Source: a virus
Taxonomy: Duplodnaviria > Caudoviricetes
DNA length: 64,000 nucleotides
Strand: one strand, 5' to 3'
Virus record (IMG/VR): IMGVR_UViG_3300033076_001341
Coordinates: 63,940-127,939 of that record
Shown piece after piece: positions 2,762 to 63,984 of this stretch (position 1 is the first letter of the stretch; each line of letters opens with the position of its first letter). The translations under genes were made by a program, and so were the position numbers. The notes beneath the pieces were generated by a model. The model saw only the letters and a program-made list of their open reading frames with translations. It searched no databases and was not told where the DNA came from.

Positions 2762-2837
2762 TAAATAATAGGGTAAGGTTAGTAACGGACCGGGTCTACA
2801 AAGATATCAAGTAATTTGTAGACTTTCGGCATTTCTT

Positions 2838-2848
2838 CGTATATTATA
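2838..2848 (+). promoter_or_regulatory. candidate late promoter element CGTATATTATA
   Basis: Identical 11-mer at 46179-46189; both copies precede + strand membrane-protein cassettes. Confidence 0.45.
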
Positions 2849-2910
2849 TATAGCAGCTGTGCTACGCTGCAAACTTCTCTTTTTGTCATTTATGTTACTG
2901 ATTTTCTGAC

Positions 2911-3240
2911 ATGTCTACCGCACCCAAGAACGACATCATTTCAACTGTAAAGGAGTGGGCTTCTCCTGCGTTGATCGCCATTGTAGGAACGCTGTTATAC
3001 AGCGATCTGAGTGAACTCAAAAGCGATGTAAAAACATTGCTCATTCAACAAAGCGTCGACAGGACCCGCATCGAAATGCTTGAACGTGATCTTCAGATCC
3101 TGGAGCAGAATCGTTCGGCAGTCGCATCAGACAGCTCACGCAGTGTTGCTTTTGGATTGAGTATATGTCCGGTCTGGATGCGCATAGGACCCTTCAAGAA
3201 AGAAGACGAGATCTCGCTAGAAGAGAAGAAACTGTCGTAG
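2911..3240 (+). CDS. membrane protein (TM + coiled coil), lysis cassette
   Basis: N-terminal TM (PALIAIVGTLLY) then heptad repeats. Confidence 0.65.
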   Translation: MSTAPKNDIISTVKEWASPALIAIVGTLLYSDLSELKSDVKTLLIQQSVDRTRIEMLERDLQILEQNRSAVASDSSRSVAFGLSICPVWMRIGPFKKEDEISLEEKKLS

Positions 3241-19098: not shown

Positions 19099-19365
19099 TT
19101 ATTCGTCTTCGAACAGATCAATCTCTTCGTCGGCGGGGTCGATGACTTCCAAATCGGAAACATCGTCTACACCGAGTTCTTCGAGGTCTTCGTCTGAGAG
19201 CACGGTAGGTTGCTCACCGAGAGATAATACGGATGAGTGGAAAGGGTCCTCAAAATGTTCACCCCAGTTGATAGCCAGGAGATATTCGAAGTCTTCATCG
19301 GTCATTCGTAAGTATGTCTCTATCGAAACTTCAATACACTTACCGTTTGGTAAACTGACTATCAT
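19099..19365 (-). CDS. acidic hypothetical protein
   Basis: 88-aa ORF. Confidence 0.65.
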   Translation of the reverse strand: MIVSLPNGKCIEVSIETYLRMTDEDFEYLLAINWGEHFEDPFHSSVLSLGEQPTVLSDEDLEELGVDDVSDLEVIDPADEEIDLFEDE

Positions 19366-19515
19366 TACAATTAATGATGCAAATTACCAAATTTTGTAGA
19401 TCAAATATACAACAGTTCTACAAATTAAAACACTATATCGCTATCAGGAAATAAAAAAACCGGTCACTACGAGAGCAACCGGCTTACACCAATACAGTAG
19501 ACACTGTATTATATC

Positions 19516-19863
19516 TTAGTAGATGGTGATCACGTCACCGTCGATGGAAAAGTTTGCAGTAGATTTGGCGATCTGGATTGTTACTCCTTTGACAACCAGT
19601 ATAACAAATTTGCTGTCATCAGGTTTTTCGACAGACGACGGTGTCATAGGTACATTATTAACGGCTAGTGCATTAACACCAACCGGACGTTTACCGCGCA
19701 AGTTGGTGAGAACTATTCCTTCGTCTTTCATTTTCTTTTTAAAGTTGTGAACGCTTGAGATTGCAATGCCGAAATACTTGCTGATGTCTTCAGGTGTTAC
19801 ACCTTGCAGCACCATTCCTTGCAACTTTTCCTTTTCTTCAGGAGTCAACCGTTTTTGATTCAT
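19516..19863 (-). CDS. HTH DNA-binding protein
   Basis: LQGVTPEDISKYFGIAISSVHNFKK helix-turn-helix; directly downstream of the integrase. Confidence 0.7.
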   Translation of the reverse strand: MNQKRLTPEEKEKLQGMVLQGVTPEDISKYFGIAISSVHNFKKKMKDEGIVLTNLRGKRPVGVNALAVNNVPMTPSSVEKPDDSKFVILVVKGVTIQIAKSTANFSIDGDVITIY

Positions 19864-20015
19864 GCGTACTGATTGGGTTATTGTATTATTGATTTTTGTC
19901 AAGCAATTTAGAAAAATTTGTCAAATATTCGTTGTGCTCTTGTAGAGTATTAATAAAAACACACAATATTGTTGAATTTATAGAATTGTATTGACTTATC
20001 AATCAAGTGTTAATG

Positions 20016-21140
20016 CTAAATCTGAGGTAAATCTTGCTCGTTGATATTTAATAGAACTCCTAAAGACCTTAAATATACAATAGTTATACTAACATCACCA
20101 TGTCCCATAAGTTGAGACAACTTTGGAAGGTCCTGAGTTCTTCTAAATAGCAATACGGCAGCCGTATGTCGTATACTGTACAGGGTGTGGTCTTTAGTTA
20201 CTACTTTGTCCTTCAACAGCTTACGCTTTACTTTTTTCCATATCGTTGAAAAGTATTCTTCGCTTTGATATGGTTTTTTCTTTTTGGTGAATATGTTATA
20301 ATCCGGTGGAAGCTCGTCAATCTGACGTTTAATTAACTCTTCCCGGACAAATCCAGGGACTGGTACAACGCGAAGTTGTCTGTTTTTAACTTCGTCCCCA
20401 TCCATTGAAATCATGGTTAACTGCTCGTTAAAGTGATCTCGATTAAGGTTTCTGATCTCTTTATGTGGTCTCAAAAAGCTTCCGTACATCAATAAAGCGC
20501 ACAGATAAAGATTGCTGTTTTCTGCTTTGATGTACTCTAATACTTGTTTGAATTGTTTTTCTGTAAACGCTCGGTTACGTTTAGGACTTTTCTTTTTTAC
20601 ACTGGTTAATGTTACGGGATTAACTCCGATCATTTTGTTCTCGACAAAAAGTGTAAATATCCCGCTAAGTCGATTGCGAACAATCATGTAATAAGCTGCT
20701 GATGATGTAATTGTATTTAAGTACGTTTGAATATCATCTTTAGTAATCAATGCTGTTCGAAGATGTTTGAGGTTCTTTATGTCCAGGTATTTGCGAAACT
20801 TTCTTGCCGCGTATTTAAAATCTTTCTTGTGGCGTTCCGAAAAACTTGCTGGATAAAGGCGCTCTAGATTCTCCTCCTGGAGATCCGTAGTCAATAAACT
20901 ACGGGGATGGTCAACACTATCAACAGGTTCCCAGCCGGCAAGCAACAGCTTATGGAGATGGTATTGCAACCTCTCCAATTCCTGCTGTCGATGTTTAAGA
21001 GTTGTACACGTTATCGGTGAACAATCCAATCCGACCTGGGACCCGTCATAGTAGCGTTTACGTTTTTTGTTGTAATAGAAAAAAACAAACCCGCGCTGGG
21101 TGAGTTCCTGAGGATTGTACACCTCCGGTTTTGTAAACAT
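20016..21140 (-). CDS. int: tyrosine recombinase / integrase
   Basis: Catalytic set R (FLRPHKE), K (VKN), HxxxxxRH (HTLYSIRH), GH, Y (IVYL); start taken at MFTKPE. Confidence 0.92.
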   Translation of the reverse strand: MFTKPEVYNPQELTQRGFVFFYYNKKRKRYYDGSQVGLDCSPITCTTLKHRQQELERLQYHLHKLLLAGWEPVDSVDHPRSLLTTDLQEENLERLYPASFSERHKKDFKYAARKFRKYLDIKNLKHLRTALITKDDIQTYLNTITSSAAYYMIVRNRLSGIFTLFVENKMIGVNPVTLTSVKKKSPKRNRAFTEKQFKQVLEYIKAENSNLYLCALLMYGSFLRPHKEIRNLNRDHFNEQLTMISMDGDEVKNRQLRVVPVPGFVREELIKRQIDELPPDYNIFTKKKKPYQSEEYFSTIWKKVKRKLLKDKVVTKDHTLYSIRHTAAVLLFRRTQDLPKLSQLMGHGDVSITIVYLRSLGVLLNINEQDLPQI

Positions 21141-21190
21141 TTGCAGTAAATTTTGTCTCTTTGAAAAAATAGTAATCAAGCAAAACGCTT

Positions 21191-21358
21191 GACAGCAGAG
21201 AGTTTGAAGGCAGTATCATGGGAAACTCATAACCCGAAGGTCCCAGGTTCGATCCCTGGCTTCGCAACAAAACAAGACCCACTACTACAGTGGGTTTTGT
21301 CGTTTTTATGAGGTTCTGATTTTTGCTTCATTTTACTGTCTCTGCTGTCTCTGCTGTT
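21191..21358 (+). other. putative attP: 3' half of a tRNA-Met(CAT) core (21226-21267) flanked by arm-type repeats
   Basis: CTCATAACCCGAAGGTC-CCAGG-TTCGATC-CCTGG-CTTCGCA-A with no 5' tRNA half; CTCTGCTGT(C/T) at 21340 and 21349 and its inverse GACAGCAGAG at 21191. Confidence 0.8.
21272..21307. terminator. hairpin terminator after the half tRNA
   Basis: ACAAGACCCACT-ACTAC-AGTGGGTTTTGT. Confidence 0.7.
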
Positions 21359-43285: not shown

Positions 43286-43738
43286 TTAGATGTACATGGA
43301 AACGATCTTGTTAACGAACTCTTCAGAGGTAGTAGAACATTCTGCGAAAGCAGCTTCAACAAGGATGTTGTTAGCAATGTCTTTAGTACAAGGTACACTT
43401 TGACATCTGGCAGATACACTTATATTTGATGGATCATACCTATAACGAGTGGTGCTTGCACTTGTGTAAACATTCTCTTTCTCGTACTTTTTGTCGAATT
43501 GCTCGCGCTTTTTCTCAAACTTATCGATCAAGTCGTTAAGTTCATTACGTTTGGCGCTGATGTCTTCAATCAGTTTAGTTAACTCTTTGAAGTCTTTAGA
43601 TTCTTCAAGTTTGCTAGTCTTCGCTTTTCTTGCTTCGTCATTGGATTTTTCAATCCTCGCTTGTACCTGCCCTGCAAGTGCTTCAGCGAGCGTTTTGGTG
43701 ATTTTAATACCTGTGGTTTTCATGGATGTATTTTTCAT
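43286..43738 (-). CDS. hypothetical coiled-coil protein
   Basis: Start at ATG 43738 or 43723. Confidence 0.65.
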   Translation of the reverse strand: MKNTSMKTTGIKITKTLAEALAGQVQARIEKSNDEARKAKTSKLEESKDFKELTKLIEDISAKRNELNDLIDKFEKKREQFDKKYEKENVYTSASTTRYRYDPSNISVSARCQSVPCTKDIANNILVEAAFAECSTTSEEFVNKIVSMYI

Positions 43739-43795
43739 ACCTGCATTACTGCAACGCACTAGACCTAAATGCTGTTTATACTCGTCTAGTCGAGT
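43736..43795 (-). ncRNA. pistol ribozyme
   Basis: ACUCG-ACUAGA-CGAGU-AUAAA-CAG-CAU-UUAGG-UCUAGU-GCG-UUGCA-GUAA-UGCAG-GU-AUG: P1, 6-bp pseudoknot, AUAAA linker, GCG, P3, GU cleavage site, P2 CAU/AUG. Confidence 0.85.
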
Positions 43796-50721: not shown

Positions 50722-51097
50722 GGGGATGAAATGGATTCGACAGCATTGTCGGGGACATGTACACATGCAGAGAGATGATACTGTTCTCTATAATCACGTA
50801 TTACACTAATTAAACGGCAACGTAGAATTATCTGAAATGACTTTTGAAGACGCTATCGCATTCGTTGGTGAATACGAAATGGCAGCCTAAGTCGCGGGGA
50901 GTCATCCCTGGGAACAGAAAATGACACACGAGTATCACGGTTCCTGGACCTAAACCAGGTGGTGGAATCTGACTTCGGTCAACCCTACGGTGCAGACCAT
51001 ATCGTTGACATCAACGAAATGATCAGTACTAAGCATGTAAGATGTACATATCTGCTGCTTTGACTGGACGGCGGTTCGATACCGCCCATCTCCACCA
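50722..51097 (+). ncRNA. ssrA: tmRNA; predicted tag (A)GNVELSEMTFEDAIAFVGEYEMAA* at 50816-50890
   Basis: 5' GGGGATG...GGATTCGAC; 3' GGCGG-TTCGATA-CCGCC-CATCTCC-ACCA; G3:U70 pair; TAAAC before the resume codon; tag ends AA-stop. Confidence 0.92.
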
Positions 51098-52515: not shown

Positions 52516-52586
52516 TGCGCGGTAGTGTAGCGGTAACACGCAGGACTCATGATCCTGTACCGGAGGTTCGATTCCTCCCTGCGCAA
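52516..52586 (+). tRNA. trnM: tRNA-Met(CAT)
   Basis: TGCGCGG/CTGCGCA-A; GTGT/ACAC D stem; CAGGA-CTCATGA-TCCTG; GGAGG-TTCGATT-CCTCC. Confidence 0.85.
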
Positions 52587-52599
52587 CTAGTCTAACCCT

Positions 52600-61188: not shown

Positions 61189-62805
61189 ATGGCAACTCCA
61201 GTATTAAACAACGGTCTGTTCTTGCGTGACACCCAGTACAAGGTGCAGTCACACTTGGACTCCTACCACTTGGTGAACATGCTTAAGTCTAGCGAACCCA
61301 TGGATTTGGGTCCTGTAGACTTATGGGCAATGGCGCAAAAGGTAGAAATGCCTCTTTACCAGATGGCATCATTCGGTGGTAAAAACACCATCATGGTTGA
61401 CAACGCTCGCGGCGAGTACAAATGGCAGGTTCCTGTGGTACAGGATCTTCCTTACGTTACCGAAGATGTAGAATCTAATTCTACTCCTGGTGTGGACGGT
61501 ACTACGTTCAAGATCAAATTGAACAAGCGTATTTTCGGTCACGGTGATATCATCACCTACGATAAATACAACGGTGTAGAATTGTACATCACTGCTGAAG
61601 ATATTCTTCCTGCAGGTGATGGTTTCATCTACACAGTTCAGATTGTCAACAACGACAACACCAAGTATTTCGACAAGAACTACATGAAACCTGGCGTGAA
61701 GTATTTCCGCAAAGGTTCTGCTCGTGGCGAATACGGTGAAAAATTCTCTGACATTGGAGAAATCTCTGCTGGTTACCGCGAGTTCTACAACTTCGTGGGT
61801 GGTGCAGAAGCACACGTACACTATTCTATCTCTTCTCGCGCAGAGTTGATGATGAAAGGTGGTATGAACCAGGATGGTTCAGTTCCTGTAACTGAGATCT
61901 GGAGAAACTTCGACAAATCTGTTGACCCTTCAATCACCTCTATTGACGAGATGGTTAAGAAGATGGGTAAGGAATTCGTTCGTAAAGCTTACGATAACGG
62001 AAACTTGTCCAGGACTTTCGTAACCAACTTGGAAGCAGCTCACTTGACCAAGATTGCAACTGACATCGAAACCTACTTGATGTGGGGACAAGGTGGACGT
62101 GTGAAGCAGGATGGTCCAGATGACATCCGCTTGTCAGTAGGTCTTTGGAAGCAGTTGGATAACGCCTTCAAACGCGTGTACAACAAAGGTTCTTTCACAT
62201 TGGAATTGTTCCGTTCTGAAATCTTCAACTTCTACAATGGTAAGGTTGAGTTCAAAGGTCCAGATCCTAAGCGTCAGATCATCGTTCAAACCGGTATGGC
62301 TGGTATGAAGATGGTGAACGAGGCGATCAAGAAGGAAGCTTTGGGTGCAGGTTTGGTTGTTCAGGCTGCAGACATCGGGGCGATCACTGGTAAAGGAATG
62401 GACTTGAACTTCGGTTTTGCGTTCACTTCTTACACCATTCCTTTCTTGGCAAACGTGAAGTTTGTTTTGAACCCTGCTTTTGACAACGTTCACACCAACG
62501 ACATCGAGAACCCTATCGTAGATGGTTTCCCATTGTCTTCTTACAACTTCATCGTGTTCGATATCACCGACAACACCAACGACAACATCTACTTGTTGAA
62601 GTTGAAGTGGGATAACGAATTGAAGTGGTTCTACCAAAACGGTACCATGGACTACATGGGTCGTACTCAAGGTTTCAACAGCTCTGGAAACTTCAACGGT
62701 TACAGAGTGTACATGACTCAAACAATGCCTGCAATCTGGGTGAAAGACCCTACAAAGGTGTTGAAGATTGTTATGAGAAACCCAGTAACTGGCGCATCTC
62801 TGTAA
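61189..62805 (+). CDS. major capsid protein (crAss-like)
   Basis: 538 aa, strongly biased codons, terL-portal-scaffold-MCP order, C-terminal IWVKDPTK. Confidence 0.85.
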   Translation: MATPVLNNGLFLRDTQYKVQSHLDSYHLVNMLKSSEPMDLGPVDLWAMAQKVEMPLYQMASFGGKNTIMVDNARGEYKWQVPVVQDLPYVTEDVESNSTPGVDGTTFKIKLNKRIFGHGDIITYDKYNGVELYITAEDILPAGDGFIYTVQIVNNDNTKYFDKNYMKPGVKYFRKGSARGEYGEKFSDIGEISAGYREFYNFVGGAEAHVHYSISSRAELMMKGGMNQDGSVPVTEIWRNFDKSVDPSITSIDEMVKKMGKEFVRKAYDNGNLSRTFVTNLEAAHLTKIATDIETYLMWGQGGRVKQDGPDDIRLSVGLWKQLDNAFKRVYNKGSFTLELFRSEIFNFYNGKVEFKGPDPKRQIIVQTGMAGMKMVNEAIKKEALGAGLVVQAADIGAITGKGMDLNFGFAFTSYTIPFLANVKFVLNPAFDNVHTNDIENPIVDGFPLSSYNFIVFDITDNTNDNIYLLKLKWDNELKWFYQNGTMDYMGRTQGFNSSGNFNGYRVYMTQTMPAIWVKDPTKVLKIVMRNPVTGASL

Positions 62806-62884
62806 TCTGACCCTATAGGAAACGCCGGGTAGTTCTTCTACCCGGCAACTTTCCGAACCCCTCCATGGATAGTCTCCATGGACC

Positions 62885-62929
62885 GAACTGGACAGTCGGT
62901 GTCACTCAGAGTTCAACTCTCTGCAGTTC
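62885..62929 (+). ncRNA. tRNA minihelix-like element
   Basis: GAACTG-GACAGTCGGTGTC-ACT-CAGAG-TTCAACT-CTCTG-CAGTTC. Confidence 0.45.
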
Positions 62930-62967
62930 TCGAAAAACCCGGGATACCGGTAACCAACAACCAACCA

Positions 62968-63984
62968 ATGAGTGTAACAATAGTAGAAGGCAGCAATTCT
63001 GCGAAGCAGGGTTCTGCAATTGCGATCCGACCCTATGTTGAATCAGGTTCAACAAACATGGGTCTTGAAAAGTACAACCTTGCCCTGTACGACGGGATAT
63101 TCCACGAAGAACAGCTGGCATGTTTGGAAAGAAACGGAATCAAGCAGTACGTAACCGGTTTAAACGAGTTCGCTCCGGAGATCCAGTTACTTCCTGAAGA
63201 AGAGAAAAATGCTAAGGTGAAAGAAATCAGAACCTTGGTAGCGACTTTGGAGAAGATGCTTGCTTCTAACGTTCTTGACGTTAATGATTCAGAGTTCTGG
63301 AACAAAGTGAAAGTACTTCGTCCGGACAATGGTGACTTCTGGGACAAGATCATCCTTCGAATGAGTAATGATCCTGTGTACCTAGATCCTTCAAAAGATC
63401 CACACGATTTGATCAAGCTAAGAGCAATCGAAGCTGGTGGGTTCTCTTTAGTAGGTAAATCATTGGAACACGCTCGCACCATGCCGAAACCTCCTAAGTT
63501 TTACTTAGACAAATACGAGGAGACTGCAGGAACGAAGACTGAAATGAAGAAGATCCGTAACAAAGCGTTGGCTGAGTTGCAGAAGCTCTTTGACAAGAAC
63601 GTTAATAAACTCTTGTATGTGTGCAAGGTTATTGATCCTAACAGTGCACAATACCGCAAGAGCACGCCTAACGATGTGATGTATGATATCATGGACCGCT
63701 ACATCAACGGTGAGTCTATTGAGACCAACAAGCGTCGTGCAGCACAAACATTCTTAGACGTTGCCTCTTTGGATATGGAGACATTGAAATTGCGTGCGAT
63801 TGTTAAGGATGCTACCTACTACAAAATGATTGCCTTCCGTGGCGATGGTTTCATCTACCACATGAAGTCAAGCACTGTACTGGGTAAAAACCCAAGTGAT
63901 GTAACTGAGTACTTGAAGAACCCTTTGAATGAACAAATTCTTTTAGACTTAAGCAAGAACCTGGAGAAGTTTTGGAATCAGTAA
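62968..63984 (+). CDS. protein downstream of the major capsid gene
   Basis: Start MSVTI; YLDPSKDPHD, YLKNPLN; crAss-like gene order. Confidence 0.75.
   Translation: MSVTIVEGSNSAKQGSAIAIRPYVESGSTNMGLEKYNLALYDGIFHEEQLACLERNGIKQYVTGLNEFAPEIQLLPEEEKNAKVKEIRTLVATLEKMLASNVLDVNDSEFWNKVKVLRPDNGDFWDKIILRMSNDPVYLDPSKDPHDLIKLRAIEAGGFSLVGKSLEHARTMPKPPKFYLDKYEETAGTKTEMKKIRNKALAELQKLFDKNVNKLLYVCKVIDPNSAQYRKSTPNDVMYDIMDRYINGESIETNKRRAAQTFLDVASLDMETLKLRAIVKDATYYKMIAFRGDGFIYHMKSSTVLGKNPSDVTEYLKNPLNEQILLDLSKNLEKFWNQ

Follow-up and report, generated by a model that had tools for sequence, protein, structure and literature searches.

A probable lambda-type integration module directed at the initiator tRNA gene of Chitinophagaceae in a distant crAss-like phage lineage

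The subject of this work is a stretch of 64,000 nucleotides (nt), hereafter the window, that forms the second half of the IMG/VR virus record IMGVR_UViG_3300033076_001341, a phage with distant crAss-like affinities. Within it, a tyrosine integrase gene (int; product Int) adjoins an intergenic region that carries the 3' half of an initiator tRNA gene (tRNA-fMet). These elements probably constitute a working site-specific integration module of the lambda type, common to a distant crAss-like subclade of phages of ~100-128 kb, and the match of the half tRNA to host genes indicates that the phage very probably inserts into the tRNA-fMet gene of Chitinophagaceae. As for the position of the crossover, the protein that binds the repeats around the core, and the actual formation of lysogens, these are points that we infer.

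The attachment site and its counterpart in host genomes

The putative phage attachment site (attP) is centred on a core of 43 nt that corresponds to positions 32-74 of tRNA-fMet, running from C32 of the anticodon loop (CTCATAA) through A73 and one further base (Table 1). The core occurs once in the whole genome, neither ARAGORN nor Rfam calls a complete tRNA at this place, and a search of this phage for a flanking direct repeat or a second core copy returned none. An earlier inspection of the letters alone, the sequence-only reading, had already recognised here the 3' half of a tRNA-Met(CAT) beginning in the anticodon loop; this stands, and the half tRNA is of the initiator type with its start at C32, while the core length then given, 42 nt, has to be corrected. 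The terminator that it saw after the half tRNA is likewise present, as a hairpin followed by a T run, and would be placed to end the regenerated tRNA gene once the phage has integrated.

Which host would offer such a gene? A 33-nt part of the core was compared with a genome collection of 185,579 species, and it is exact in 30 genome stretches (31 matches), all from Chitinophagaceae or from unclassified Bacteroidota metagenome-assembled genomes (MAGs). The genera include Niabella, Flavihumibacter, Paraflavitalea, Flavisolibacter, Ferruginibacter, Niastella, Pseudobacter and Pseudoflavitalea. In every one of the 31 matches the identity reaches 8 nt further to the left, where its limit is precisely C32 in the anticodon loop; on the right it goes 2-6 nt beyond A72, so that the shared core measures 43 nt, and the longest identity, with a Niabella yanshanensis MAG, is 47 nt. 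The matched genes are initiator tRNAs, as judged by a GGG/CCC anticodon stem and a C1-A72 mismatch, and each has its own terminator at the same place as the one in the phage. The full tRNA 5' half is present in all 31, which means that no displaced fragment is among them. The comparison with host tRNA-fMet genes, which the sequence-only reading had proposed as a way to predict the host, therefore gave a clear answer, and the predicted host family is Chitinophagaceae (e.g., Niabella).

Two tRNA genes of phage origin were considered as sources of the core and rejected. The phage's own tRNA-Met gene (52516-52587) has a different anticodon stem, T arm and acceptor and is unrelated, and the full initiator-type tRNA-Met gene (1044-1118) of contig L147, a more distant relative in the phage family whose helicase is 45% identical, differs in the T arm and the acceptor stem. 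A separate observation concerns a Niabella MAG (L026, reverse strand), in which a degenerate second tRNA-fMet 3' end with a terminator lies ~50-170 nt downstream of the gene. This second copy is interrupted by a short palindrome and may be the scar of an earlier insertion at the tRNA-fMet gene.

On both sides of the core are short repeats: a tandem pair ~69 nt past it and, ~66 nt from it on the int side, a third copy in direct orientation, which sits 14-20 nt upstream of the int ATG. There is also an inverted 11-nt copy of the tandem-repeat junction, seen only in this phage and in its 99% twin, L076. The sequence-only reading had described repeats on both sides in opposite orientation; they do exist, but they are not the conserved pattern, since the inverted copy is specific to this phage and the third, direct copy had been missed. 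A further element of the int-side arm, situated between the third repeat and the core, is a small hairpin that leads into a T-rich stretch (window 21175-21193, minus strand). Within it a GCGTTT(T/C) block is conserved in relatives and may be a regulatory or bending site.

Table 1. Features of the putative integration module (window coordinates).
Feature	Position	Strand	Description
Intrinsic terminator closing the int-HTH transcription unit	19457..19485	-	12-bp stem, then T run
115-aa helix-turn-helix (HTH) protein, directly downstream of int	19516..19863	-	kept in relatives; AlphaFold (AF2) model
Tyrosine integrase, 374 aa, three-domain, lambda-Int-like	20016..21140	-	PF00589, phrog_1, AF2 model
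Third, direct arm-type copy, TGTCTCT (reverse complement AGAGACA)	21154..21160	+	position conserved in relatives
Inverted 11-nt copy of the tandem-repeat junction	21191..21201	+	100% complementary to 21339-21349
attP core, 43 nt (tRNA-fMet positions 32-74)	21226..21268	+	exact match to Chitinophagaceae tRNA-fMet
Intrinsic terminator beside the core	21272..21308	+	hairpin 21272-21300 with 12-bp stem, then T run
Tandem arm-type repeats	21337..21357	+	9-nt unit twice (21337-21354) and a partial third copy

Two versions of the core and the tracking of host genes

The core exists in two versions that differ only in the T stem, CCAGG/CCTGG in the one and GGGAG/CTCCC in the other, a difference that amounts to four compensated pair changes. 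Version 2 is found exactly, over 43 nt, in 46 of the 401 sampled genomes of the Niabella family (Chitinophagaceae). How the two versions are distributed can be read from a maximum-likelihood tree of Int. There, P0004, a version 2 phage, is nested with P0005 and P0006, both version 1, with support 100/100, and this group sits inside a clade (100/99) that also holds this phage and P0002, again both version 1; the other clade of the tree is entirely version 2. Since P0004 and P0006, whose integrases are 78% identical and whose int-side arms are clearly homologous, carry different core versions, the core tracks the tRNAs of the hosts and not the phylogeny of the phages.

The T arm was thus swapped as a block at least twice, each time to a sequence present in real host genes. 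This block exchange is, on the comparison of these sequences, the strongest indirect evidence for actual integration, because a fragment that never worked within a tRNA, or that never met a host gene, would have no reason for such swaps. The simplest route would be an exchange of copies between attL and attR in a lysogen whose host carries the other version.

The integrase and the gene that follows it

The sequence-only reading had proposed a full tyrosine recombinase, and this is confirmed by the family matches and by a complete catalytic set. Int matches PF00589 with an E value of 2e-13 (50.8 bits, against a gathering cut-off of 27.1) and phrog_1 with 1e-31, and the catalytic residues R224, K252, R324, H347 and Y356 are invariant in 17 homologues. 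The open reading frame (ORF) spans 20016..21179 on the minus strand, and the true start, ATG at 21140, was placed from homologues, whose consensus begins MFTKPE. The AF2 model, built on the alignment of homologues, has a confidence (pLDDT) of 86 and is composed of an N-terminal part, a helical core-binding domain and a catalytic domain. It aligns with full-length lambda Int (1z1b_A) at a TM score of 0.61 over 385 columns and further resembles Tn1549 Int, XerA, XerH and Cre; sequence-family matches to named Xer models are all far below their cut-offs. In the N-terminal part a three-stranded sheet (residues 6-30) is followed by a helix (48-67), and this domain is a candidate for an arm-binding-like function as far as the model goes. 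A Pfam search of Int at E <= 5 returned PF00589 alone, with no arm-binding family, no Arm-DNA-bind_5 and no Phage_int_SAM_5.

Directly after int, in nine of the nine relatives compared, comes the gene for the 115-aa HTH protein. Its AF2 model (pLDDT 67) combines a three-helix HTH with a small beta domain; Pfam HTH matches are sub-threshold only, and PHROG matches are weak. The protein is a candidate, and only that, for a recombination directionality factor or a regulator. The Bacteroidota -7 promoter motif (TAnnTTTG) is absent directly upstream of int and shows no enrichment in the window.

The same module in related phages

Fourteen Int homologues, 47-99% identical and encoded on contigs as long as 128 kb, came from a search of 5.8 billion proteins; the module as a whole is present in at least eight distinct related phages (more than 12 contigs), with integrases 49-78% identical. 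The contigs read for gene order were L046/L047, L049, L052, L056-L061, L074-L077 and L158. All that could be read share one order: DUF7303, DUF6915, a gene of 250-300 aa, the intergenic region, int, an HTH gene of 113-117 aa, small ORFs and a helicase. The intergenic region is itself ordered, with tandem repeats, hairpin, core and arm, then int. When these regions are aligned, a half tRNA-fMet is found in all of them, and its left boundary is C32 in every related phage.

The spacing is kept as well. Measured across relatives from the far edge of the core, the int ATG is at +125 to +131 nt and the tandem repeats are ~75-91 nt away (55-64 nt in L060). A direct copy of each phage's own repeat stands at +105 in L049, L056, L059, L060, L074 and L075; the exceptions are L058 and L052, where the int-side arm is short and lacks the third copy. 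Apart from L060, where other sequence stands in its place, every relative examined retains the hairpin after the core, with differing stem sequences.

While the positions of the repeats are constant, their sequences are not. The unit is AGAGACA in this phage and GAGACA in L046, CAGTGTCA in L059 and L075, CTGAGTCA in L060, CTGCGCCAG in L049 and L056, CACAGAGGT in L058 and L052, and GTCGCCAG in L074. The conserved pattern is of two tandem copies on the far arm and one direct copy by the int start, and the repeats on the two sides of the core covary in at least seven lineages and are unrelated to the core sequence. Units that are lineage-specific and yet always repeated would be the signature of protein-binding sites that co-evolve with the protein that binds them.

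Beyond the subclade, Int homologues at 34-42% identity are encoded on bacterial contigs beside genes for tRNA-Arg(CCT), tRNA-Thr(CGT) and tRNA-Phe. Since these distant homologues adjoin tRNA genes, the integrase family behaves as tRNA-directed in this phylum. One further case is a contig of 259 kb (L064), in which a 34%-identical integrase has as its neighbour (2830-3000) the 3' half of a tRNA(CAT), beginning within the anticodon loop. The layout is the one seen here, hairpin, tRNA(CAT) half, arm and int, with the half tRNA in the same orientation to int, and the arm has TGCGCCA repeats upstream of the int start. The neighbours of this int are bacterial (a NusG-like protein, an MpaB-type oxygenase and a CHU_C type IX secretion cargo protein), and the signal domain of the last of these points to Bacteroidota. 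The L064 module may mark one end of an element that has integrated or decayed.

A proposed course of integration

How would such a module work? Through its 43-nt core, the circularised genome would recombine with a Chitinophagaceae host at the initiator tRNA-Met gene. Strand exchange would most likely occur in or near the 7-nt anticodon loop, a placement that is suggested because the identity starts exactly there in every phage. Insertion would join the host promoter and the 5' half of the tRNA to the 3' half and the terminator brought by the phage, and because of this junction the essential tRNA gene would stay intact; the displaced host 3' half would end up at the other end of the prophage, beside int. 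The 7-9-nt repeats would serve as arm-type sites, bound by the N-terminal domain of Int or possibly by the 115-aa HTH protein, and the copy by the int start could autoregulate int.

The fuller picture, towards which the balance tips modestly, is that a subclade of crAss-like phages of ~100-128 kb, infecting Chitinophagaceae of soil and water, is truly temperate, that the prophage rebuilds tRNA-fMet, that the T arm is swapped at a change of host, and that the arm-site code drifts with the integrase. That attP was read correctly is strongly supported by the comparison of relatives; integration at tRNA-Met, which the sequence-only reading had predicted, is what we infer from it, no attL, attR or lysogen having been found among the genomes and contigs described below.

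Observations that weigh against integration, and the age of the module

Several observations weigh against integration of these phages. Junctions and prophages had been suggested as a check, and the outcome was negative: no attL, attR or lysogen was found in 401 Chitinophagaceae genomes, in 35 Niabella genomes or in any of the more than 12 contigs of the clade. All 12 contigs looked up for close Int homologues are in the attP form or truncated, and none of the close homologues in the search of 5.8 billion proteins comes from an NCBI genome. The 127.9-kb record as a whole gave no match to HTH_3, Peptidase_S24 (CI-like repressor) or HTH_17 (excisionase). A divergent repressor could still be encoded in the genome, and the 115-aa HTH protein is the sole candidate for maintaining or reversing lysogeny. 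The sequence next to the anticodon loop on the int side does not mimic the anticodon stem. Finally, a scan with the neighbouring helicase yielded 71 viral contigs (helicase 45-57% identical), including contigs of 100-121 kb; in the ~40 that continue for 5 kb or more upstream, Int, the HTH protein and the core are all missing.

Contig ends bear on the same question. The contigs of one relative in three Logan assemblies of one study (L159, L160 and L161, bases 1-131; separate runs SRR31802164, SRR31802166 and SRR31802167) end 1 nt past the far edge of the core and read straight through its int-side edge; one Logan contig has 66,951 bp. An ENA assembly (ERZ21966605) adds a fourth contig, of another relative, which begins 132 nt upstream of int and so likewise stops 1 nt past that far edge. 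At these ends, on the far side of the core, the assembly graph forks, a pattern that fits the presence of attP and attR together and is only suggestive; to be set among the points against, such breaks could reflect co-occurring host tRNA genes or strain variation. Other searches gave distant relatives: Int compared with the five genomes of best core match, the 401 genomes of the Niabella family and the 35 Niabella genomes found distant integrases only (at most 36% full-length identity), and a metagenome scan with the Int alignment found relatives at 30-46% identity only.

The helicase scan also speaks to the age of the module. Its sole contig with the module, L113, is the known relative L046 (helicase 80% identical). 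Within the subclade, Int identity falls to 47-51%, in step with the neighbouring genes: when this phage is compared with L046, Int is 71% and the neighbour proteins 43-91% identical, and for L049 the figures are 51% and 38-86%. Because the ~40 wider relatives lack the module while Int co-diverges with its neighbours, a single old gain is indicated; the module was acquired once, in the ancestor of a subclade whose family otherwise lacks an integrase, and has been inherited vertically since then. The sequence-only reading had taken the cassette for AT-rich and hence recently acquired. The composition is indeed low in G and C (GC) in this phage, 0.34-0.40 across 19200-20800 against ~0.46 in the flanks, with int at 0.39. 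As a consistent trait of the relatives it fails, for the dip is present in L056 and L074 and missing in L046, L059 and L075. The notion of a recent acquisition is contradicted by the co-divergence of Int with its neighbours, by the lineage-specific nature of the dip and by the age of the module in the subclade.

Alternative explanations

Could the module be kept for another purpose? One possibility is that it resolves multimers or circularises the genome by recombination of attP with attP, as in Cre/lox or Xer/dif, and that the tRNA-like core is a leftover. The want of any lysogen, attL or attR and of a recognised repressor or excisionase would suit such a role, as would the fact that the nearest named sequence families of Int, far below cut-offs as they are, are those of Xer recombinases. 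We regard it nonetheless as improbable. A leftover would not stay exact, 43 of 43 nt, to the tRNAs of living hosts in two compensatory versions, nor would it change version between sister phages; directional integrases, as opposed to resolvases, typically have what is seen here, three arm-type sites and an arm-binding-like domain at the N terminus; and a conserved terminator after the end of the tRNA is sensible only if a tRNA gene is rebuilt.

Very improbable, in our judgement, is that a small integrative element of independent origin, or else a recent horizontal insert, landed in this phage as the cassette, with the half tRNA as one end of that element; the sequence-only reading had itself named a separate inserted element as grounds for refutation. 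It could draw on the GC of int (0.39 against ~0.46), on the absence of the cassette from the wider phage family, and on the lack of an Int homologue in 50,697 deposited phage genomes, yet the core has a single copy with no flanking duplication, the module occupies the same gene slot in all close relatives with an integrase that diverges in step with its neighbours, and several of these relatives have no GC dip. Scarcely credible is a third proposal, namely that the half tRNA is expressed as a stand-alone 3' fragment, a decoy or repair substrate against host anticodon nucleases, and adjoins int by coincidence. It is true that the fragment begins exactly at the anticodon loop and has its own terminator, in a genome rich in unusual small RNAs, among them a tmRNA and a pistol ribozyme. 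However, no promoter was identified upstream of it, it is always linked to int in a fixed geometry with arm repeats, and the layout is that of a textbook attP of the anticodon-loop class (10.1101/2020.11.02.365908). Integration at tRNA-fMet is the reading that we prefer to all three.

The phage genome and its crAss-like affiliation

The IMG/VR record has 127,939 bp and a CheckV completeness of 100%, and it is listed as linear, without an end repeat. Its bases 1-1367 align to 126527-127923 (window 62588-63984) at 81% identity, so that the assembly seems to wrap round a closed map of ~126.5 kb and to join two strain variants; within this overlap, the first 77 nt are identical although the overall figure is only 81%. 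Because the record ends overlap in this way, the genome is that of a free phage. The sequence-only reading had also taken it to be in the unintegrated form, and the phage genes on both flanks of the module, the single core copy and the overlapping ends all agree with that.

As for affiliation, terminase, portal and capsid are closest to crAss-like phages, all of them distant matches, and these suggest a distant crAss-like phage. The terminase is 24-26% identical to those of cr130_1, cr1_1 and others, over 85-88% of its length, and the portal matches phrog_6547. The major capsid protein has 29% identity to that of Leptolyngbya phage Lbo-JY46 and 22-24% to those of crAssE-Sib, cr6_1, Cellulophaga phages and Azobacteroides ProJPt-Bp1; the match to crAssE-Sib, an Epsilon crAss-like phage, is 24% and among the better capsid matches. 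The 50,697 deposited phage genomes contain no DNA match to the phage and, by tblastn, no match to Int.

Other features of the genome deserve mention. An ORF of 3,928 aa (genome 32622-44405, plus strand, locus L084) has as its sole PHROG match a C-terminal RNase H (residues 3733-3919). A tmRNA gene lies at window 50722-51097 (plus strand; Rfam RF00023, 93 bits, full-length model) and adjoins tRNA-Thr and tRNA-Met genes; its tag, as given by ARAGORN, is unusual, with 24 residues and the ending EMAA. A pistol ribozyme is present at window 43735-43795 (minus strand), where its 57.7 bits exceed the Rfam gathering score.

Relation to known systems and significance

The closest model is lambda, with its heterobivalent integrase and its attP of the P-O-P' type. 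The two systems are alike in the three-domain fold with complete catalytic residues, in arm repeats that flank the core and are unrelated to it, and in the adjacency of int and attP. They differ in that Int is only ~15% identical to that of lambda, that the target here is a tRNA gene, that no IHF sites, Xis sites or Xis homologue were recognised in this phage, and that the arm sites are few (2 + 1) and short (7-9 nt); the module is known here from sequence and a model.

A class of tRNA integration sites in the anticodon loop is established (10.1101/2020.11.02.365908). Elements of this class share with the present one an identity that runs from the first base of the anticodon loop to the discriminator base, and they too supply the 3' part of the gene. 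The target here is the initiator tRNA of Chitinophagaceae, and the carrier is a crAss-like phage of ~126 kb instead of a genomic island or a small temperate phage. No other elements that use the Chitinophagaceae initiator tRNA were found, no systematic search for them having been made. Integrases of the IntDOT/NBU type from Bacteroidota have Arm-DNA-bind_5 and Phage_int_SAM_5, both of which this Int lacks.

Among crAss-like phages, those of the gut are characterised as incapable of lysogeny (PMC8375218), and a 2026 catalogue of the mouse gut annotates integrases in Intestiviridae and Zeta crAss-like genomes (PMC13503771). With respect to these gut carriers of integrases, the host family here is an environmental one, Chitinophagaceae and not Bacteroidales, and the target is the initiator tRNA. 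The Epsilon crAss-like phages (crAssE-Sib) have repressor and anti-repressor genes and related incomplete prophages in Parabacteroides, and neither an integrase nor attP is reported for them (PMC11054128). They are, like the present phage, a distant crAss-like lineage with genomic hints of lysogeny; the situation is reversed in that a clear integrase and attP are found in this phage, in which repressor and anti-repressor were not recognised. What is unusual here is the host family and the target tRNA, and the pattern in which core and arm sites have evolved is informative.

What do these observations mean for the biology of the group? In the usual account, crAss-like phages cannot lysogenise and persist by other means. 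A conserved module that tracks its hosts extends the case for true integration beyond the gut lineages, to an environmental branch with at least eight distinct sequenced members. The module predicts the host family of an uncultured group of phages and offers a pair, attP and attB, whose recombination can be tested directly. In addition, the switch of the T arm between sister phages, together with the covarying arm repeats, provides a compact natural data set on the evolution of site specificity in integrases. If the subclade is temperate, the history of host switches in these uncultured phages, whose group is thought to be non-lysogenic, could be read from the attP core.

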